Shown: positions 44,293 to 62,918 of the stretch, one piece after another
How the letters are laid out: every line of letters starts with the position of its first letter
How positions within the stretch are numbered: the first letter of the stretch is position 1
IMG/VR virus record: IMGVR_UViG_3300022468_000772
Coordinates: 22,224-86,223 of that record
Direction: 5' to 3' (one strand)
Source of the DNA: a virus
Lineage: Duplodnaviria; Heunggongvirae; Uroviricota; Caudoviricetes
Length of the DNA: 64,000 bases
The notes under the pieces: generated by a model
What the model saw: the letters and a program-made list of their open reading frames with translations, nothing else
Told to the model about the DNA's origin: nothing
The model's database searches: none
Position numbers and translations under genes: made by a program

Positions 44293-44970
44293 ATGAAATT
44301 GAGCAAAGCAACTTTGGCGGTACTGAAGAATTTTTCTTCTATCAATGGAAACGTCATGATCGAAGCAGGTAACTATCTGCACACCCGTACCGTGGAGCGT
44401 AACATGTACGCATGCGCAACCGTGGAAGACGAATTCCCCAAAACCTTTGGTATCTATGATCTGTCACAACTTTTGGGTGTGATCAGTTTGTTCAGTGAAC
44501 CTGAGTTGGAATTTGGTGAGTCTTCCCTGACCATTAGCCAAGGTAAGAACCGTGTTGAATACCGTTATGCATCATCAGACATTCTGGCTTTCCCAGACAA
44601 GAAACTGACTGAGCCTAGTGTTGATGCGACATTCACTCTGACCGAAGAAAACCTGAAGTCTCTGCTGAAAGCCGGTGCTGTTTTGGGATCGCAGATGTTG
44701 CGTATCGGTGGTGATGGTAAGACCATCACATGTACACTGTTAACACTGGATAAGGACAATAACCCATCCACATCGTTTAACACCTTCAGCGTTGATGTTG
44801 GTGACACTGATAGCACTTTTAGTGTAGATATTCGCCTTGAAAATATTAAGATGATGTCTGGTAACTATGAAGTGTCTTTATCCAAAAAGAAGATCGCTAA
44901 ATTTGCAAACACAGGCACATCATATACCCTGTATGTGGCAAACGAAAAGTCTTCTAAGTGGGAAGACTAA
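44293..44970 (+). CDS. gp45: DNA polymerase sliding clamp
   Basis: MKLSKATLAVLKNFSSIN, FGIYDLSQLLG. Confidence 0.93.
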   Translation: MKLSKATLAVLKNFSSINGNVMIEAGNYLHTRTVERNMYACATVEDEFPKTFGIYDLSQLLGVISLFSEPELEFGESSLTISQGKNRVEYRYASSDILAFPDKKLTEPSVDATFTLTEENLKSLLKAGAVLGSQMLRIGGDGKTITCTLLTLDKDNNPSTSFNTFSVDVGDTDSTFSVDIRLENIKMMSGNYEVSLSKKKIAKFANTGTSYTLYVANEKSSKWED

Positions 44971-45612: not shown

Positions 45613-45637
45613 AAAACTGTGTTATAATTTGTCTATT

Positions 45638-45758
45638 GCGAGGGTGGCGAAATAGGTAGACGCACTGGACTTTTACAGAATATCTTCCTAAGAGGGTATT
45701 CGATAAAATCCAACGGGGAGTGATCCTCATACGGGTTCGATCCCCGTCCCTCGTACCA
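45638..45758 (+). tRNA. tRNA-Leu-type gene with 32-nt hairpin insert in anticodon loop
   Basis: Acceptor GCGAGGG/CCCTCGT, Leu-type D and variable arms, T arm, CCA; insert at ~45672-45704. Confidence 0.8.
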
Positions 45759-45760
45759 GT

Positions 45761-45834
45761 GGCGCACTGTCAGATTGGTTATGTACGGGATTGCAAATCC
45801 TGATAGATCGGTTCGATTCCGGTGTGCGCCTCCA
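45761..45834 (+). tRNA. tRNA-Cys(GCA)
   Basis: GGCGCAC/GTGCGCC, loop TTGCAAA, U73, CCA. Confidence 0.9.
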
Positions 45835-46896: not shown

Positions 46897-47232
46897 TATA
46901 ATTCAGTTATCCTACATACATCGAATGGTTCGGACAAGATAGCAAGAGTTATCTGCGTAGGATTCTCAACAAAAAAGCCGTGACAGTTGAGAACTTGTTG
47001 AGGAACTAAAAATAGTTCCCACATGTAAGCAAAATAGTGATATAATGCTTACATGTGACAGCAAACTGACGAGTTTATTGTTGCTATAGGAAGTAATTAA
47101 TCCTAGACCTAGTATAGTGTAGTTGGTAAGCACGTGCCCATTCGTAGGTTCGAATCCTACCACTTCTGTAATGGAAGTGTAGCCAAGAGGTCTAAGGCGG
47201 GTTCGAATCCCCTACATAAGGTCATATATAAA

Positions 47233-47355: not shown

Positions 47356-47572
47356 GAGTGTATACCTTAATAAAACAGAGGCGAAGGAAAGAATCGCCAA
47401 TGTGGTCTAAAGGGAACACTTCCAACATGGTATCGGAGAATAGGGCAGTAGTGACATAAGAGTGGTATCTTATGAATCGAAGTCGGGATAAGTACCAATC
47501 CCGCTAAACAGGAATCCGAACGATACCGGAGAAGATGTTTGATTTTAGGTTCGAATCCTAATGTACTCACCA
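47356..47572 (+). ncRNA. 217-nt tRNA-like RNA with large internal insertions
   Basis: GAGTGTA/TGTACTC stem + ACCA, canonical T arm, several internal hairpins. Confidence 0.5.
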
Positions 47573-48047: not shown

Positions 48048-48171
48048 TTTGTTGTGAAGGGGAATTGGTATACCCTACTGGTTGGATAATAGTGGGAAAG
48101 CGGTGTTTATCACCTTAAAGTAGCCCTCCTGTAAGCCGGTGCTTGTTTAGGTTCGAATCCTATCAACAAAA
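48048..48171 (+). tRNA. tRNA-like gene with ~45-nt insert in anticodon loop, no encoded CCA
   Basis: TTTGTTG/CAACAAA, D arm AGGG/CCCT, stem CTGGT/GCCGG around a 52-nt loop, T arm. Confidence 0.5.
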
Positions 48172-49823: not shown

Positions 49824-50165
49824 ATGAGTAATCTGAAACTGTATATCGCGGTTCTAGACGAGTTTCCAGACTATATGACACCTACCCTAGTGGCACATGC
49901 TGTTCTCGCTGCAGATCGCGAATTTGTAGGAACCAAACTGTATGAACAATGGTTTGCTGATTCATTTAAGAAAGTTGTTGTTCGGGTCAACCAAAAAGAG
50001 TTTGACAAGATTAGTCAACTATTTGGTGTGCATCTGGCGCACGAAAACAAGACACTTGGCGGTAAGAAAGCATGTGCTGTTGTATGCCCTCGCGAAGATG
50101 TGCCCAATGTATTGAAATTTGCTAAGACTTGGAAACCACTTCCGGCATCTAGTGAGGTCAGCTAA
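49824..50165 (+). CDS. Peptidyl-tRNA hydrolase 2 (PTH2)-like protein
   Basis: KLYIAV...VAHA...W...SFKKVV.RV pattern matches the PTH2 fold signature. Confidence 0.55.
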   Translation: MSNLKLYIAVLDEFPDYMTPTLVAHAVLAADREFVGTKLYEQWFADSFKKVVVRVNQKEFDKISQLFGVHLAHENKTLGGKKACAVVCPREDVPNVLKFAKTWKPLPASSEVS

Positions 50166-50246
50166 AGGTTAAGCTGTTGCCCTCGATATCAGAAAAAGGC
50201 GTCACTGATTGGCAACAAATTTTTGGTTCGATTCCAAAATCTCATA
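50152..50246 (+). tRNA. tRNA-like gene with ~22-nt hairpin insert in anticodon loop
   Basis: GTGAGGT/ATCTCAT, D arm GCT/AGC, GTTGCC/GGCAAC around 29-nt loop, T arm. Confidence 0.5.
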
Positions 50247-50291
50247 CAAACCGTGTTATAATTCAGTCATCGAAATTCAAAAGGTGGTCTT

Positions 50292-52186: not shown

Positions 52187-52271
52187 GGGAGAGTGGCGGA
52201 ATAGGTAGACGCGCCGGTTTAAGAAGCCGGTACCGTAAGGTGTGCAGGTTCGATTCCTGTCTCTCCCACCA
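52187..52271 (+). tRNA. tRNA-Leu(AAG)
   Basis: GGGAGAG/CTCTCCC, loop TTAAGAA, variable arm, A73, CCA. Confidence 0.88.
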
Positions 52272-53281: not shown

Positions 53282-53601
53282 TTAGTGCAAAAGAAGCCAA
53301 AGAACTATACGACAACTCTGGTGCTGAAGTTGAGGATTTTCTGGCAAAAACTGTCGAGCCTGCGGTTATTAAAGCAGCCAGGGGTGGTAAGCGACAAGCC
53401 ACTATTCATATTGGTTGTCAACGTGCCAGTATGCCTTATGAAATAAAGTCACTGGATAGTAATGTTCTCGCTAAATTGCGAAATCTTGGATATACTGCTG
53501 GAATTCAATGGATTGATGAAGAATATGTACCAAGAGGTCTGCAAGATGATAACGGTAAAGGTACACTCCATCGTAACTATGGCTATCTCATTAAGTGGTA
53601 A
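53278..53601 (+). CDS. Hypothetical protein
   Basis: ATGA overlap. Confidence 0.65.
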   Translation: MISAKEAKELYDNSGAEVEDFLAKTVEPAVIKAARGGKRQATIHIGCQRASMPYEIKSLDSNVLAKLRNLGYTAGIQWIDEEYVPRGLQDDNGKGTLHRNYGYLIKW

Positions 53602-53603
53602 TT

Positions 53604-54074
53604 ATGAAAGTTTTTAAATCTCCCCAAGATACAAGTAACGTAAAAGATAGTGATTTTTCTATCTTTTTGGCAGGCTCTATTGAAATGGGCGTTGCTGAAG
53701 ACTGGCAGACTCGACTCACTACCGCAATAGCTCTAGGTGGTATTGAAATTACCATTTTTAATCCTCGTCGCGATGATTGGGATTCGTCATGGGTTCAAAG
53801 TATTCATGACAAGCAGTTTAATCAGCAAGTGACATGGGAAATTGATCATTTGCTACAATCATCATTTATCGTTTTTTACTTTGATCCAAACACTAAATCA
53901 CCTATCACTTTAATGGAGTTAGGATTGATAGCAGGCCAGTGTCGGGATGCTGTTGTTTGTTGTCCAGACGGTTTTTGGCGCAAAGGTAACGTGGAAATGA
54001 TTTGTGACCGTTTCAATATTCCTATGGTTGAAAGTTTGGAAGAGCTTATTCAGTATGTGAAGCAAATTGTATGA
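53604..54074 (+). CDS. Nucleoside 2-deoxyribosyltransferase-like protein
   Basis: IFLAGSI, DWQ, FNPRRDDW, QVTWE, SPITLMELG. Confidence 0.8.
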   Translation: MKVFKSPQDTSNVKDSDFSIFLAGSIEMGVAEDWQTRLTTAIALGGIEITIFNPRRDDWDSSWVQSIHDKQFNQQVTWEIDHLLQSSFIVFYFDPNTKSPITLMELGLIAGQCRDAVVCCPDGFWRKGNVEMICDRFNIPMVESLEELIQYVKQIV

Positions 54075-54862
54075 AATTTGTAATTCAACACAACCTTATC
54101 AATAAGCAATCACTCGAAAAGATTAGGAAGGCCACAGAGCATCTTCCTGTTGTTTGGGTAGGTGCTATACCATTCTCTGAAGAAATCGCTTCTAACGATG
54201 AACTGGAGGGTCTGGAGTACATTCCTTATGGCTCGAACCTTCTGGCGCGTGTAGCAGCTAAAAGAGGCTGGAAAGGTCTACATCATGATCTTACAAAGCT
54301 GAACTATCGCAACTTTGTTGAACATCGTGCCGATATGCTGAATTGTAATGTCATGTCTGCGGAGAGAGTTGTTGACTTTTTGGAAGTTGTCAATGGAATT
54401 CCATGGCCCAAAGAATATTTCATTCGGCCTAGTCTAGATGACAAGCAATTCTCCGGTACAGTCATGGAACCGAAAGAAATCATTGAGTGGTTTAAATCGA
54501 TGATGGAGAGTGGGCCGGGCAGCTACTACATGTCTCCAGAGACAGATATTGTTATTGCTCTACCAAAGAAAATTCAAGCCGAGTGGCGATGGTTCATTGT
54601 TGGTGGTAAGATTATTTCTGGCTCCATGTATCGTGCCCATGATCAGATGCAGTTGAAACAAGAAACCGACATCGAAGTCATTAAAGAAGCGCAAGCACTT
54701 GCAGACGTTTGGTTGCCATGCGATTGTGTCGTGATGGATACAGCCTTAGTTGATGACAAGGTTTATGTGTTGGAGTTTAACAACATTAACTCCAGTGGTT
54801 TTTATGAACACGATATTGGCGCGGTTTTTAACGCACTGTACGGATATCATACTAAACTGTGA
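54071..54862 (+). CDS. ATP-grasp domain protein (R2K/DUF4343-like)
   Basis: FIRP..DDKQFSG, EWRWFIVGG, VMD, VLEFN..NSSGFY. Confidence 0.75.
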   Translation: MKFVIQHNLINKQSLEKIRKATEHLPVVWVGAIPFSEEIASNDELEGLEYIPYGSNLLARVAAKRGWKGLHHDLTKLNYRNFVEHRADMLNCNVMSAERVVDFLEVVNGIPWPKEYFIRPSLDDKQFSGTVMEPKEIIEWFKSMMESGPGSYYMSPETDIVIALPKKIQAEWRWFIVGGKIISGSMYRAHDQMQLKQETDIEVIKEAQALADVWLPCDCVVMDTALVDDKVYVLEFNNINSSGFYEHDIGAVFNALYGYHTKL

Positions 54863-57550: not shown

Positions 57551-57636
57551 CTGGGATTAGCTCAGTCTGGTCAGAGCACCTGATTTGGATTCAGGAGGCG
57601 AAGTCGTATACGTAGGTTCGAATCCTACATCCCAGA
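57551..57636 (+). tRNA. tRNA-Pro(TGG) with long variable region and extended acceptor stalk, no CCA
   Basis: CTGGGAT/ATCCCAG, loop TTTGGAT; stem continues 10+ bp. Confidence 0.7.
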
Positions 57637-57736
57637 CACAATACTTTGAAGCGATTTCGGAATGAAATACTGAGTTCGAAATCTAACGGTTGTAAGTGAC
57701 GATGAAAAACGGAACTTCCATTTTAAAGTTCTTTGT

Positions 57737-58225: not shown

Positions 58226-58615
58226 ATGGAAAAAACTTACGAATGTCTACACTGTAGTAAAATTTGCATTATGCATCGGGCAAAGGTTAACAAATATTGT
58301 TCAAACCAATGTCAAAAAGATTATGAATTCTATAAGTCAGTGGAATCTGGGACAGCATCGCATAGAGTTATAAAACGGTATTTGATTGAAAAGAATGGAT
58401 CAAAATGTTTTGAATGCGGGATCAGTGATTGGAATGGTTTATCTTTGGTAATGGAGTTGGAGCATATTGATGGCAATTCTGAAAACAATAGTTTAGCCAA
58501 TGTTAAACTATTGTGTCCAAATTGTCATTCCCAGACGCCAACATATAAGGCTAAAAATGTTGGAAATGGAAGGCATTCGCGTCGAATTCGATATCAAAGT
58601 GGAAAAAGTTATTAG
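58226..58615 (+). CDS. HNH endonuclease inside the tRNA cluster
   Basis: CFECG, LEHIDGNSENN...LLCPNCHS. Confidence 0.88.
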   Translation: MEKTYECLHCSKICIMHRAKVNKYCSNQCQKDYEFYKSVESGTASHRVIKRYLIEKNGSKCFECGISDWNGLSLVMELEHIDGNSENNSLANVKLLCPNCHSQTPTYKAKNVGNGRHSRRIRYQSGKSY

Positions 58616-58703
58616 CTGGATTGTCTGAGTGGTTGAAAGAAACGGTTTTGTAAGCCGTTGGGTTAACTCCCCATCGCAGGTTCGAATCCTGTGTCCAGCA
58701 CCA
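58615..58703 (+). tRNA. tRNA with Thr(TGT) anticodon on a class-II body
   Basis: GCTGGAT/GTCCAGC, loop TTTGTAA, long variable arm, CCA. Confidence 0.8.
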
Positions 58704-61865: not shown

Positions 61866-62918
61866 ATGAAAACATCTATCTCTCAACTCAAAACATATTT
61901 GGTCGGCGGCGCAGTTCGCGATATCTACATGGGAGAAATCCCAAAGGATCGTGACTACGTTGTGCTTGGTTCCTCTCCAGAAGAAATGCTTTCTCTGGGC
62001 TTCGAACAAGTCGGTGCTGACTTCCCTGTGTTTCTACATCCAGAGACAAAGGAAGAGTATGCTTTGGCTCGTCGTGAGCGCAAGGTTGGTTCTGGTTACC
62101 TTGGTTTTGAGTGTGAGTTTGGTGCTGATGTTACACTTGAAGAAGACCTGAACCGTCGCGATTTCACTTGCAACTCCATGGCAATGGATTTGGAAACAAA
62201 CGAAATCTTTGACCCGTTTGATGGTCGCCACGACATCGACAGAGACACTCTCCGTATTACCTCTCCTGCCTTCAAAGAAGACCCTCTGCGCGTCTTGCGC
62301 ATGGCACGTTTTGCTGCGCGTTATGATTGGCATATTTCGTCTGAGTCTGTTGGTATTGCACGAGAAGTTGTACTCTCCGGTGCATTGAATGAACTGCCTG
62401 CAGAGCGTTTCTGGAAAGAGATTGAAAAGTCTTTTGATGACGAATCATTGCGTGATTTTTTTGTTAACTTGGATTACCTTCTGGTTATGAATTTTTCCGA
62501 GTTTTTTAAGAATGCACTACCAAAGTGGGCTGTTTATAAATCACATTTTGATGATCTTGAAAATGTGGAGTGGCTTTCTGCTCTGCTGTCGAATGAAAAT
62601 ACAACAATCTGGCTATCTGCACGTGCCAAACGCATTGCTAAGGCTTTGATGCTGGTTACACCGAGGAATGCAGAAACAATGTATAGTTACCTACTTGGAT
62701 GTGATGCATTCCGCATGAGCAGTATCTTGCGCGATGTTGTAAGTATCAAAAAAACAGTATATTTTAATACATCAACACAAATCACCATTGGTGCATGTAA
62801 CCTGTGCAAGACAGTCACTGCAACCGACTTCCCAAATCTGGAAGGAAAAGCGCTTGGTGATGCTATCAAAGACAAACGCATGCAATTGATCGCATGTCTC
62901 TATAACGATTTATTTTAA
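61866..62918 (+). CDS. cca: tRNA nucleotidyltransferase (CCA-adding enzyme, class II)
   Basis: YLVGGAVRD, DRDYVV, ALARRE, EEDLNRRDFTCN, EDPLRVLRMARFAAR, ERFW.E. Confidence 0.93.
   Translation: MKTSISQLKTYLVGGAVRDIYMGEIPKDRDYVVLGSSPEEMLSLGFEQVGADFPVFLHPETKEEYALARRERKVGSGYLGFECEFGADVTLEEDLNRRDFTCNSMAMDLETNEIFDPFDGRHDIDRDTLRITSPAFKEDPLRVLRMARFAARYDWHISSESVGIAREVVLSGALNELPAERFWKEIEKSFDDESLRDFFVNLDYLLVMNFSEFFKNALPKWAVYKSHFDDLENVEWLSALLSNENTTIWLSARAKRIAKALMLVTPRNAETMYSYLLGCDAFRMSSILRDVVSIKKTVYFNTSTQITIGACNLCKTVTATDFPNLEGKALGDAIKDKRMQLIACLYNDLF

Follow-up and report, generated by a model that had tools for sequence, protein, structure and literature searches.

As far as we are aware, bacteria and their viruses are thought to splice tRNAs solely via self-splicing group I introns. 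'Enigmatic' short introns have been reported, with no mechanism of removal, in tRNA genes of the Lak megaphages, ~540-kb phages of Prevotella with an alternative genetic code (Devoto et al., 10.1101/356790). Here we describe an interrupted tRNA-Leu(UAA) gene in a 64,000-nt stretch of DNA from a tailed virus (Caudoviricetes), hereinafter the window, which covers bases 22224-86223 of the virus record IMGVR_UViG_3300022468_000772 (198,204 bp in length and judged to be complete). Like the Lak introns, the insert in this gene lies in the anticodon loop, is too short to self-splice, is conserved, and is present in some variants and absent from others. Some of the Lak introns, however, are tRNA-like, whereas the insert described here is a simple hairpin of 32 nt by which the loop is zipped up, in a T4-like phage with a 198-kb genome whose sister phages carry a nuclease cassette at the same site. 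The likeness is drawn from the description of the Lak introns. The present case departs from them in three respects: the loop-zipping hairpin is bare, the phage is T4-like, and a series of alleles is documented in which a nuclease cassette occupies this very site.

Intervening sequences of bacterial 23S rRNA are removed by RNase III without religation. As in these, the insert described here extends a helix from a loop of a stable RNA and is patchily distributed among close relatives; in contrast to them, a nicked anticodon loop would not decode, so that religation would be needed, and the geometry of RNase III cleavage cannot restore the ancestral loop. The group I intron of tRNA-Leu(UAA) sits at U34/A35, that is, at the same position as the present insert or adjacent to it. 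In cyanobacteria and plastids (reviewed in PMC3984707), that intron resides in the same tRNA species, and its removal regenerates the UAA anticodon, but group I introns are self-splicing ribozymes of at least 200 nt with a terminal G, whereas the present insert has 32 nt, no catalytic core and no terminal G. The archaeal and eukaryal introns with the bulge-helix-bulge (BHB) motif, which are processed by EndA or TSEN together with RtcB or Trl1 (PMC4090602), are likewise short, pair with the loop and depend on an endonuclease and a ligase; unlike in these introns, there is no BHB motif here, the position is not 37/38, the phage encodes neither EndA nor RtcB, and the cuts needed would be oppositely staggered.

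At the DNA level, the closest parallel is gene 60 of phage T4, where a 50-nt bypass insert protects against cleavage by MobA (10.1101/2022.08.31.505936). In both cases an essential or useful gene of a phage of the T4 type contains a short non-coding insert near the known or presumed site of a homing endonuclease; the T4 insert is tolerated because expression of the gene works around it. In T4, however, this workaround is ribosomal hopping on the mRNA and the insert lies inside the nuclease cassette, whereas here the gene encodes a tRNA, and the insert and the nuclease open reading frame (ORF) occur in alternative alleles. T4 SegB and other free-standing homing endonucleases are also located in tRNA clusters and overwrite the alleles of related phages (PMC2330249). 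F-CphI of cyanophage S-PM2 targets an intron insertion site; insertion into the target gives immunity, and inserts devoid of a nuclease are mobilized in trans (PMC6083498). Unlike SegB and F-CphI, the cassette ORFs described below belong to no named family and are accompanied by a substitute compact tRNA-Leu.

The interrupted tRNA-Leu gene

The interrupted gene occupies positions 45638-45758 of the plus strand of the window (121 nt) and is assigned to class II tRNA-Leu(UAA), with A73 and an encoded CCA, on the basis of Rfam, ARAGORN with the -i option and the uninterrupted orthologs. The Rfam tRNA model (RF00005) aligns with 45638-45755 end to end (model positions 1-71; 41.6 bits against a gathering score of 29; local E-value 6e-8), with a 33-nt insertion within the anticodon loop; ARAGORN in the default mode misses the gene, and with -i calls it with a 30-nt intron. 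The body is of the class II Leu type, with a 7-bp acceptor stem (G1.U72), a 3-bp D stem, a 5-bp variable arm with a GNRA loop, a canonical T arm and the 3' end ACCA, which bears out the well-formed Leu body with a hairpin in the anticodon loop described in an earlier note made from the sequence alone. Alignment with the uninterrupted alleles delimits the 5' exon at 45638-45672 (through U34, or to 45671 if the insert follows U33), the 32-nt intervening sequence at 45673-45704 (or 45672-45703, a 1-nt ambiguity that is due to a repeated T) and the 3' exon at 45705-45758, which includes A35-A38, the 3' strand of the anticodon stem, the variable arm, the T arm, the acceptor strand and ACCA, all on the plus strand. 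The window genome contains no second tRNA-Leu(UAA) gene, and TTA and TTG together make up 45% of its Leu codons.

Sequence and folding of the arm identify in the insert a 10-bp hairpin, GAATATCTTC-CTAA-GAGGGTATTC with a CUAA loop (45678-45701, plus strand), two pairs of which are G.U and would be A.C mismatches if read on the opposite strand. The loop bases on either side of the hairpin are predicted to pair as well (UUUUA with UAAAA), and the resulting anticodon arm (45666-45712, plus strand) is a rod that consists of the 4-bp UGGA/UCCA stem, a C bulge, 5 bp of UUUUA/UAAAA, a 2x2 internal loop (CA/GA), the 10-bp stem and the CUAA loop, with 19 bp besides the bulge and the internal loop and a predicted length of about 21 bp. 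The minimum free energy of the arm (45664-45713) is -17.9 kcal/mol compared with -6.9 +/- 2.3 for shuffled sequences (z = -4.8; none of the 200 shuffles as good), and the rod accounts for 71% of the predicted ensemble. The anticodon loop thus defined has 39 nt, as opposed to the 7 nt needed to present an anticodon, and is predicted to be fully zipped into helix; in this predicted fold, the RNA as transcribed cannot decode. Two trivial origins of the insert were rejected: the sequence has no second copy in either the window or the 198-kb genome, which rules out a dispersed palindromic element of the REP or MITE type, and only 1 nt is repeated at its ends, which rules out a target-site duplication.

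Allelic states of the locus

Relatives of the locus were found by searching a large protein collection with two flanking proteins and fetching the respective contigs, which are designated here by L numbers. Other searches contributed little. Exact-pattern scans of IMG/VR for the tRNA halves and the insert yielded nothing beyond one relative, a metagenome pattern scan returned only unrelated bacterial tRNA-Leu genes, the insert-flank pattern gave only three chance matches, all inside coding sequence, in 185,579 prokaryote genomes, a blastn search of the INPHARED phages recovered ordinary tRNA-Leu genes (including uninterrupted cyanomyovirus tRNA-Leu(UAA) genes) that are similar in the 5' half alone, and low-threshold ARAGORN produced only noise.

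Four states of the tRNA-Leu locus were observed between the same flanking genes: (A) an uninterrupted class II tRNA-Leu(UAA) gene in L037, L034-36 and L040, where the neighbor protein is 88%, 59% and 46% identical to that of the window, respectively; (B) the interrupted gene in the window, in L028 with the same insert and in L038 with a 34-nt insert and a neighbor protein 50% identical to that of the window; (C) the first 31 nt of the class II gene followed by a nuclease-like ORF and a compact 77-nt tRNA-Leu(UAA) in L001, L020-22 and L024; and (D) the compact tRNA alone in L029-33. The same interrupted allele comes from an independent ENA assembly (L028) and its variant from a Logan assembly (L038), so the insert is not an assembly artifact. 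Given that each interrupted lineage has a close uninterrupted sister, the presence of the insert is polymorphic. The locus offers a minimal tractable case, with natural empty-site, hairpin, stem-variant and nuclease-invaded alleles of one gene.

The uninterrupted orthologs (L037, L034-36 and L040), which are the intron-less genes that the earlier note proposed to look for, have the loop CTTAAAA and the anticodon TAA, and the arm of L040, CTGGA-CTTAAAA-TCCAA, is exactly the one expected once the insert is removed. The empty site, CTT^AAAA, implies that the insert follows U33 or U34 and that its removal must regenerate UAA; the alignment permits insertion at either 33/34 or 34/35 (U34/A35). These orthologs also settle the splice register, which according to the earlier note determines the anticodon. 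The tabulation of the registers in that note is correct on recomputation, with the removal of 32 nt giving TAA at 33/34 or 34/35, TTA at 35/36 and TTT at 36/37 or 37/38, but given the CTTAAAA loop of the orthologs, only the cuts at 33/34 or 34/35 restore the gene (UAA, Leu). Cuts in the canonical register, 37/38 (UUU), or at 35/36 (UUA) do not. The ochre suppressor that the latter would produce, which the note had envisaged, is implausible on a second ground: TAA ends 115 of the 175 long ORFs, and suppression would be harmful.

The flanks of the L038 insert are identical to those in the window (CTTTTACA and GATAAAA). Its stem, GAGTATCTTC...GAGGGTACTC, shows only two differences from that of the window, with pair 3 changed from A-U to G-C in a compensatory manner, and its hairpin loop is altered, with one extra U-A pair around an AAAA loop; the arm retains the same architecture, at -21.8 kcal/mol. 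When the six class II alleles are aligned, pairing holds in 97% of cells and double changes affect five pairs (none of 500 shuffles as high), and all stem substitutions keep the pairing. Three stem substitutions are private to the interrupted alleles, and all three preserve pairing (a rough p of 0.03 under neutrality, from a small sample); no stem-breaking change occurs in the three interrupted alleles. The retention of the insert in two lineages whose neighbor proteins are 50% identical, together with the compensatory pair, supports selective maintenance. A simple pseudogene with an insert that is not conserved, the outcome that in the earlier note would have spoken against a functional insert, is not what the alignments contain: a diverged relative retains the insert, and one stem pair has changed there in a compensatory manner. 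Furthermore, all relatives sampled retain a tRNA-Leu(UAA) of some kind at this locus, even the nuclease cassette supplying one, which argues that the tRNA has a function under selection. The interrupted gene as observed and the comparative facts, as distinct from their interpretation, we regard as practically certain.

A putative nuclease cassette at the insertion site

The left junction of the cassette corresponds to positions 45668-45669 of the window, after tRNA nt 31, where the homology of L001 with the window, L038 and L040 stops. The insert begins at 45672 or 45673 (tRNA nt 35/36), 4-5 nt from this junction. In the 750 nt that end at tRNA nt 31, L001 and L038 share 94.5% identity; beyond this point, the former has the cassette block and the latter the hairpin allele. 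In L024, a different tRNA-Leu 5' fragment, also of 31 nt, precedes the same cassette start, TGAAA, and a hairpin over the ribosome-binding site of the cassette ORF is conserved and the same in L024 and L001. The candidate homing cassette, which truncates the class II tRNA-Leu(UAA) gene after nt 31, spans L001:11947-12798 and L024:304-1062. The two cassette ORFs (L001:11996-12736 and L024:356-1000) are 70% identical over the first 82 aa and then diverge; one C-terminus has a weak PD-(D/E)XK/resolvase-like match and the other weak HNH matches, and neither ORF falls into a named family. Given the shared N-terminal module, the swapped nuclease modules, the fixed junction in two recipients and the built-in substitute tRNA, the ORF and the compact tRNA apparently constitute a homing cassette similar in kind to SegB of the T4 tRNA cluster (PMC2330249), as far as can be judged from sequence.

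The compact 77-nt tRNA (L001:12722-12798, L029:2882-2958 and L024:986-1062) combines the Leu anticodon UAA with the class I shape, the long variable arm being absent, and in L029-33 it is alone at the locus. No homolog of the cassette ORF is present in the window genome, and the cassette alleles are devoid of the hairpin. The possibility that the insert is a remnant of the 5' end of the cassette was ruled out, local alignments being no better than those of shuffled sequences (p 0.79-0.99), as was the idea that the 3' half of the truncated tRNA-Leu gene persists at another place in the L001 contig.

Whether the hairpin protects the DNA of the gene from the cassette nuclease appears to us an evenly balanced question on the sequence data. 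The earlier note had suggested a decoy or shield against anticodon nucleases; for this we found no direct support, and the agent suggested by the sister phages acts instead on DNA, namely the nuclease cassette at the same site. In L037 (199-287), the exons equal those of the window except for one T-loop base and two compensatory anticodon-stem pairs (TGGA/TCCA to CGCA/TGCG). Apart from these four anticodon-stem substitutions (two compensatory pairs) and the insert, L037 and the window hardly differ within a stretch of about 350 nt of non-coding DNA. We read this focus of the differences on the anticodon arm as a sign of pressure on its DNA sequence. The recoded stem of L037 may be an alternative escape from the same nuclease and, on our reading, there are at least three forms of escape: the hairpin insert, the recoded stem and the replacement tRNA.

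Possible splicing of the hairpin and alternative explanations

The scenario that we favor, although only tentatively and at somewhat less than an even chance, is that of a selected intervening sequence that splits the target of a homing endonuclease in DNA and is removed from RNA by protein-mediated cutting and ligation. In this scenario, the hairpin of 32 nt (34 nt in the relative) after U33 or U34 would pair with anticodon-loop bases and turn the arm into a rod. In the DNA, it would interrupt the sequence next to the site of the tRNA-Leu-specific nuclease cassette of the sister phages, probably making the gene immune to that homing endonuclease, and, in mixed infections in which sensitive alleles suffer cleavage, would spread by recombination. 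In the precursor, the hairpin would most likely be excised by a protein endonuclease of the host or the phage, and the halves would be sealed by the phage Rnl1-type ligase to yield the loop CUUAAAA and a decoding tRNA-Leu(UAA). All of these steps, from immunity and hairpin excision to the sealing of the halves and a product that decodes, are inferred. Splicing is suggested by the intact body, the conserved insert, the preservation of tRNA-Leu(UAA) in every relative and in the cassette, and the lack of another copy in the window genome. That the RNA is spliced to a working tRNA-Leu(UAA) is, like the scenario as a whole, a tentative proposition; the specific combination of protein-only splicing (neither group I nor BHB), sealing by Rnl1 and a hairpin that serves as a homing-endonuclease shield and spreads by trans-homing is more tentative still.

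Outside the window, the phage genome encodes two RNA ligases: one of the NgrRnl type (PF09414; C1:128449-129498, minus strand), closely homologous to the nick-sealing ligase of Naegleria (E = 5e-57), and one of the Rnl1 type (C1:154156-155316, minus strand), which matches T4 Rnl1 (E = 2e-8). The T4-type ligase is known to reseal anticodon loops, and ligases of both kinds require 3'-OH and 5'-phosphate ends. Accordingly, a metal-dependent endonuclease would fit better than a cyclizing anticodon nuclease, unless the host heals the ends. Of the two enzymes for which the earlier note proposed to search, a ligase was thus found, in two forms, whereas no endonuclease candidate was (EndA and RNase III are absent from the phage, as is the ligase RtcB). 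The protein-dependent splicing in the phage that the note suggested fares similarly: it is consistent with the ligases and the conserved insert and is disfavored by the lack of a BHB motif and of an endonuclease candidate, so that splicing is put forward here as a hypothesis.

Several points weigh against our scenario. EndA (PF01974) and RtcB (PF01139) are absent from the complete phage genome, the searched scope, in which the search controls were positive; RNase III, PNK3P phosphatase and 2H esterase are likewise not encoded there. The predicted fold contains a 1-nt bulge and a symmetric 2x2 loop and no BHB of the 3-4-3 type, and the cuts that would restore CUUAAAA, as reasoned from the fold, would give the exon duplex a 5' overhang of 2 or 4 nt, opposite to the geometry of RNase III and EndA. 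Rnl1 is common repair equipment of T4-type phages and is not specific for splicing. The covariation in the insert amounts to one event in three sequences (roughly p 0.03-0.05), and several polymorphisms of the tRNA body are common to the uninterrupted alleles and could have been acquired by recombination rather than selection. Finally, among the loci analyzed here, the insert and the nuclease ORF never occur in one genome, and the ancestor of L001 could itself have carried the insert, which makes the immunity conjectural. With respect to end healing, the sole AAA_33 protein of the phage shows P-loop similarity only and is not recognizable as a polynucleotide kinase, and no recognizable Pnkp-type end healer was found in the phage genome. 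A check by eye of toxin-type RNase motifs (ACA, UAH) and of the RNase E motif showed that none gives a 7-nt loop; no claim is drawn from this.

The alternative that survives best, a reasonable one although less probable than our scenario, is that the insert, as a repair scar or a nuclease-resistant allele, abolished decoding, so that the RNA is made but never matures and the host tRNA-Leu(UAA) is used. The body would then look intact only for want of time since the event, or because intact alleles keep refreshing the gene by recombination. The lack of splicing machinery in the phage genome is as expected for such a dead allele, as are the sharing of most body polymorphisms with the uninterrupted alleles and the difference in allele state between close sisters, which indicates fast turnover at the locus. 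The conservation of the putative promoter is uninformative on the Leu gene given that this promoter would also serve the tRNA-Cys gene (see below). Useless DNA, however, is quickly deleted from phage genomes, whereas here the insert persists in the two lineages that are as far apart as the 50% identity of their neighbor proteins implies, with a compensatory pair and not a single stem-breaking change in three alleles; moreover, the other relatives all keep tRNA-Leu(UAA) at the locus, and even the selfish cassette supplies one.

Slightly less probable, and likewise reasonable, is a tRNA mimic, in which the unspliced 121-nt RNA itself would be the product, with normal acceptor, T, D and variable parts, a rod in place of the anticodon loop and possibly a leucyl residue; LeuRS is not known to read the anticodon. 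Such an RNA could possibly act as a decoy or sponge for a defense system that targets tRNA, or as a non-ribosomal Leu donor. The tRNA-Lys(UUU) loop is a classic target of anticodon nucleases, and the 5' side of the present loop, CUUUUA, resembles it. The rod is also very stable (71% of the ensemble, as mentioned above) and conserved, and other elaborated tRNA-like RNAs in the same genome are under selection, with compensatory changes between relatives. Phage tRNAs have been proposed, in one published account, to evolve towards evading anticodon nucleases (PMC10264068). Against the mimic, the orthologs are decoding tRNA-Leu(UAA) genes of the ordinary kind, from which the present gene is set apart by the insert alone, so that neofunctionalization and loss of the only phage tRNA-Leu(UAA) would be required, and neither a partner protein nor a defense system was identified.

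We consider it very improbable that the insert is an intervening sequence of the rRNA type, with the rod cut by the host RNase III and the halves left nicked or sealed by the phage ligases. The arm does resemble phage RNase III processing signals, with a lower stem, an internal loop and a 10-bp upper stem; the 3'-OH and 5'-phosphate ends that the ligases use are those left directly by RNase III, and no end-healing enzyme was found in the phage. Cuts with a 2-nt 3' overhang, however, give CUUUUAA or longer loops and never the ancestral CUUAAAA. The sole 7-nt loop among these, CUUUUAA, would make a Leu-charged tRNA with a Lys anticodon, an unlikely product that would place Leu at Lys codons; AAA is among the commonest codons here, and the phage already has a tRNA-Lys(UUU). 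The helix, furthermore, is limited to 19 bp and contains both a bulge and an internal loop.

The known intron types, that is, a group I remnant or an archaeal or eukaryal BHB intron cut by an EndA-type enzyme, are largely refuted and can be considered essentially excluded, because, although the insertion site may coincide with U34/A35, the classical location of the group I intron in tRNA-Leu(UAA), and the insert pairs with anticodon-loop bases as introns do in eukaryal pre-tRNAs, the 32 nt contain no catalytic core and match no Rfam ribozyme or intron family even at E = 10 (the earlier note was right to set the insert apart from group I elements, for which it is far too small), the last base of the insert is U or A and not G, no 3-nt bulges flank a 4-bp helix, the position is not 37/38, and there is no EndA or RtcB in the phage.

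Returning to the selected intervening sequence, removal of the hairpin would amount to a new pathway of tRNA maturation and would give the T4-type RNA ligases a natural role beyond repair; if the hairpin is not removed, the RNA would be a chargeable, non-decoding tRNA mimic. Either way, conflict with homing endonucleases could shape the anticodon arm of a tRNA, and the locus would be a tRNA counterpart of the bypass insert in T4 gene 60.

Genomic context and other tRNA-like genes

The G+C content is 40.7%, and T4-type replication genes are present, among them that for a sliding clamp (44293-44970) with 40-47% identity to cyanomyovirus clamps. The interrupted gene opens a tRNA cluster that extends from 45638 to about 62900 and includes 15 standard tRNAs (ARAGORN default), several odd tRNA-like genes, an AlkB-like gene and, at the far end, a gene for a CCA-adding-enzyme-like protein (61866-62918, plus strand; Pfam PolyA_pol head domain, 67.8 bits), which is mentioned for context only. 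A tRNA-Cys(GCA) gene (45761-45834, plus strand) begins 2 nt 3' of the interrupted gene and probably belongs to the same transcription unit. Upstream, an extended -10 promoter-like motif, TGTTATAAT (45620-45628, plus strand), can be read directly from the sequence and ends 9 nt before the 5' end of the tRNA-Leu; equivalents of TGnTATAAT (TGGTATAAT, TGCTATAAT and TGATATAAT) are equally spaced from the tRNA in L034, L037, L038, L001 and L040. A consensus promoter scanner did not list the motif at 45620-45628 because no -35 element is present; the motif is a putative promoter.

Several other RNAs of the cluster depart from the standard tRNA form. Variable regions of 13-14 nt that form hairpins, unusual for these isoacceptors, are present in tRNA-Pro(UGG) (57551-57637) and in one tRNA-Thr(UGU) (58615-58703), and a tRNA-Leu with the anticodon AAG (A34; 52187-52271) is conserved in L001. 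A tRNA-like gene at 50152-50249 has a 29-nt anticodon loop with an ATCAG/CTGAT hairpin and the 3' end ACAA; it shows 97-98% identity in L001 and L029, well above that of the flanking DNA, and a compensatory acceptor pair in L001. Another, at 48048-48171, has a 52-nt anticodon loop, lacks CCA and is 96.8% identical in L001, where one T-stem pair is broken. At 47356-47572, a 217-nt RNA combines a tRNA acceptor stem, a T arm and ACCA; five pairs of its internal hairpin are kept via three double changes in L001, and it is also conserved in L034/35 and partly in L029. At 47105-47220, two T-arm-like modules flank an inverted acceptor-like hairpin, an arrangement conserved in L001, L038 and L040; weak Rfam matches to YrlA and tRNA occur at 47111-47201, the YrlA-like score of 23.9 bits being far under the family threshold.

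Beside the tRNA-Leu locus of some relatives (L001:12811-12921, L038:1675-1778 and L040 from 1285) lies an odd tRNA-like RNA (GGGTGTG...CACACCC-ACCA, with a T arm), which is conserved in the L001-type lineage and absent from the window. Inside the tRNA cluster of the window, adjoining genes at 53595-54862 encode a nucleoside 2-deoxyribosyltransferase-like protein and an ATP-grasp protein of the R2K clade.

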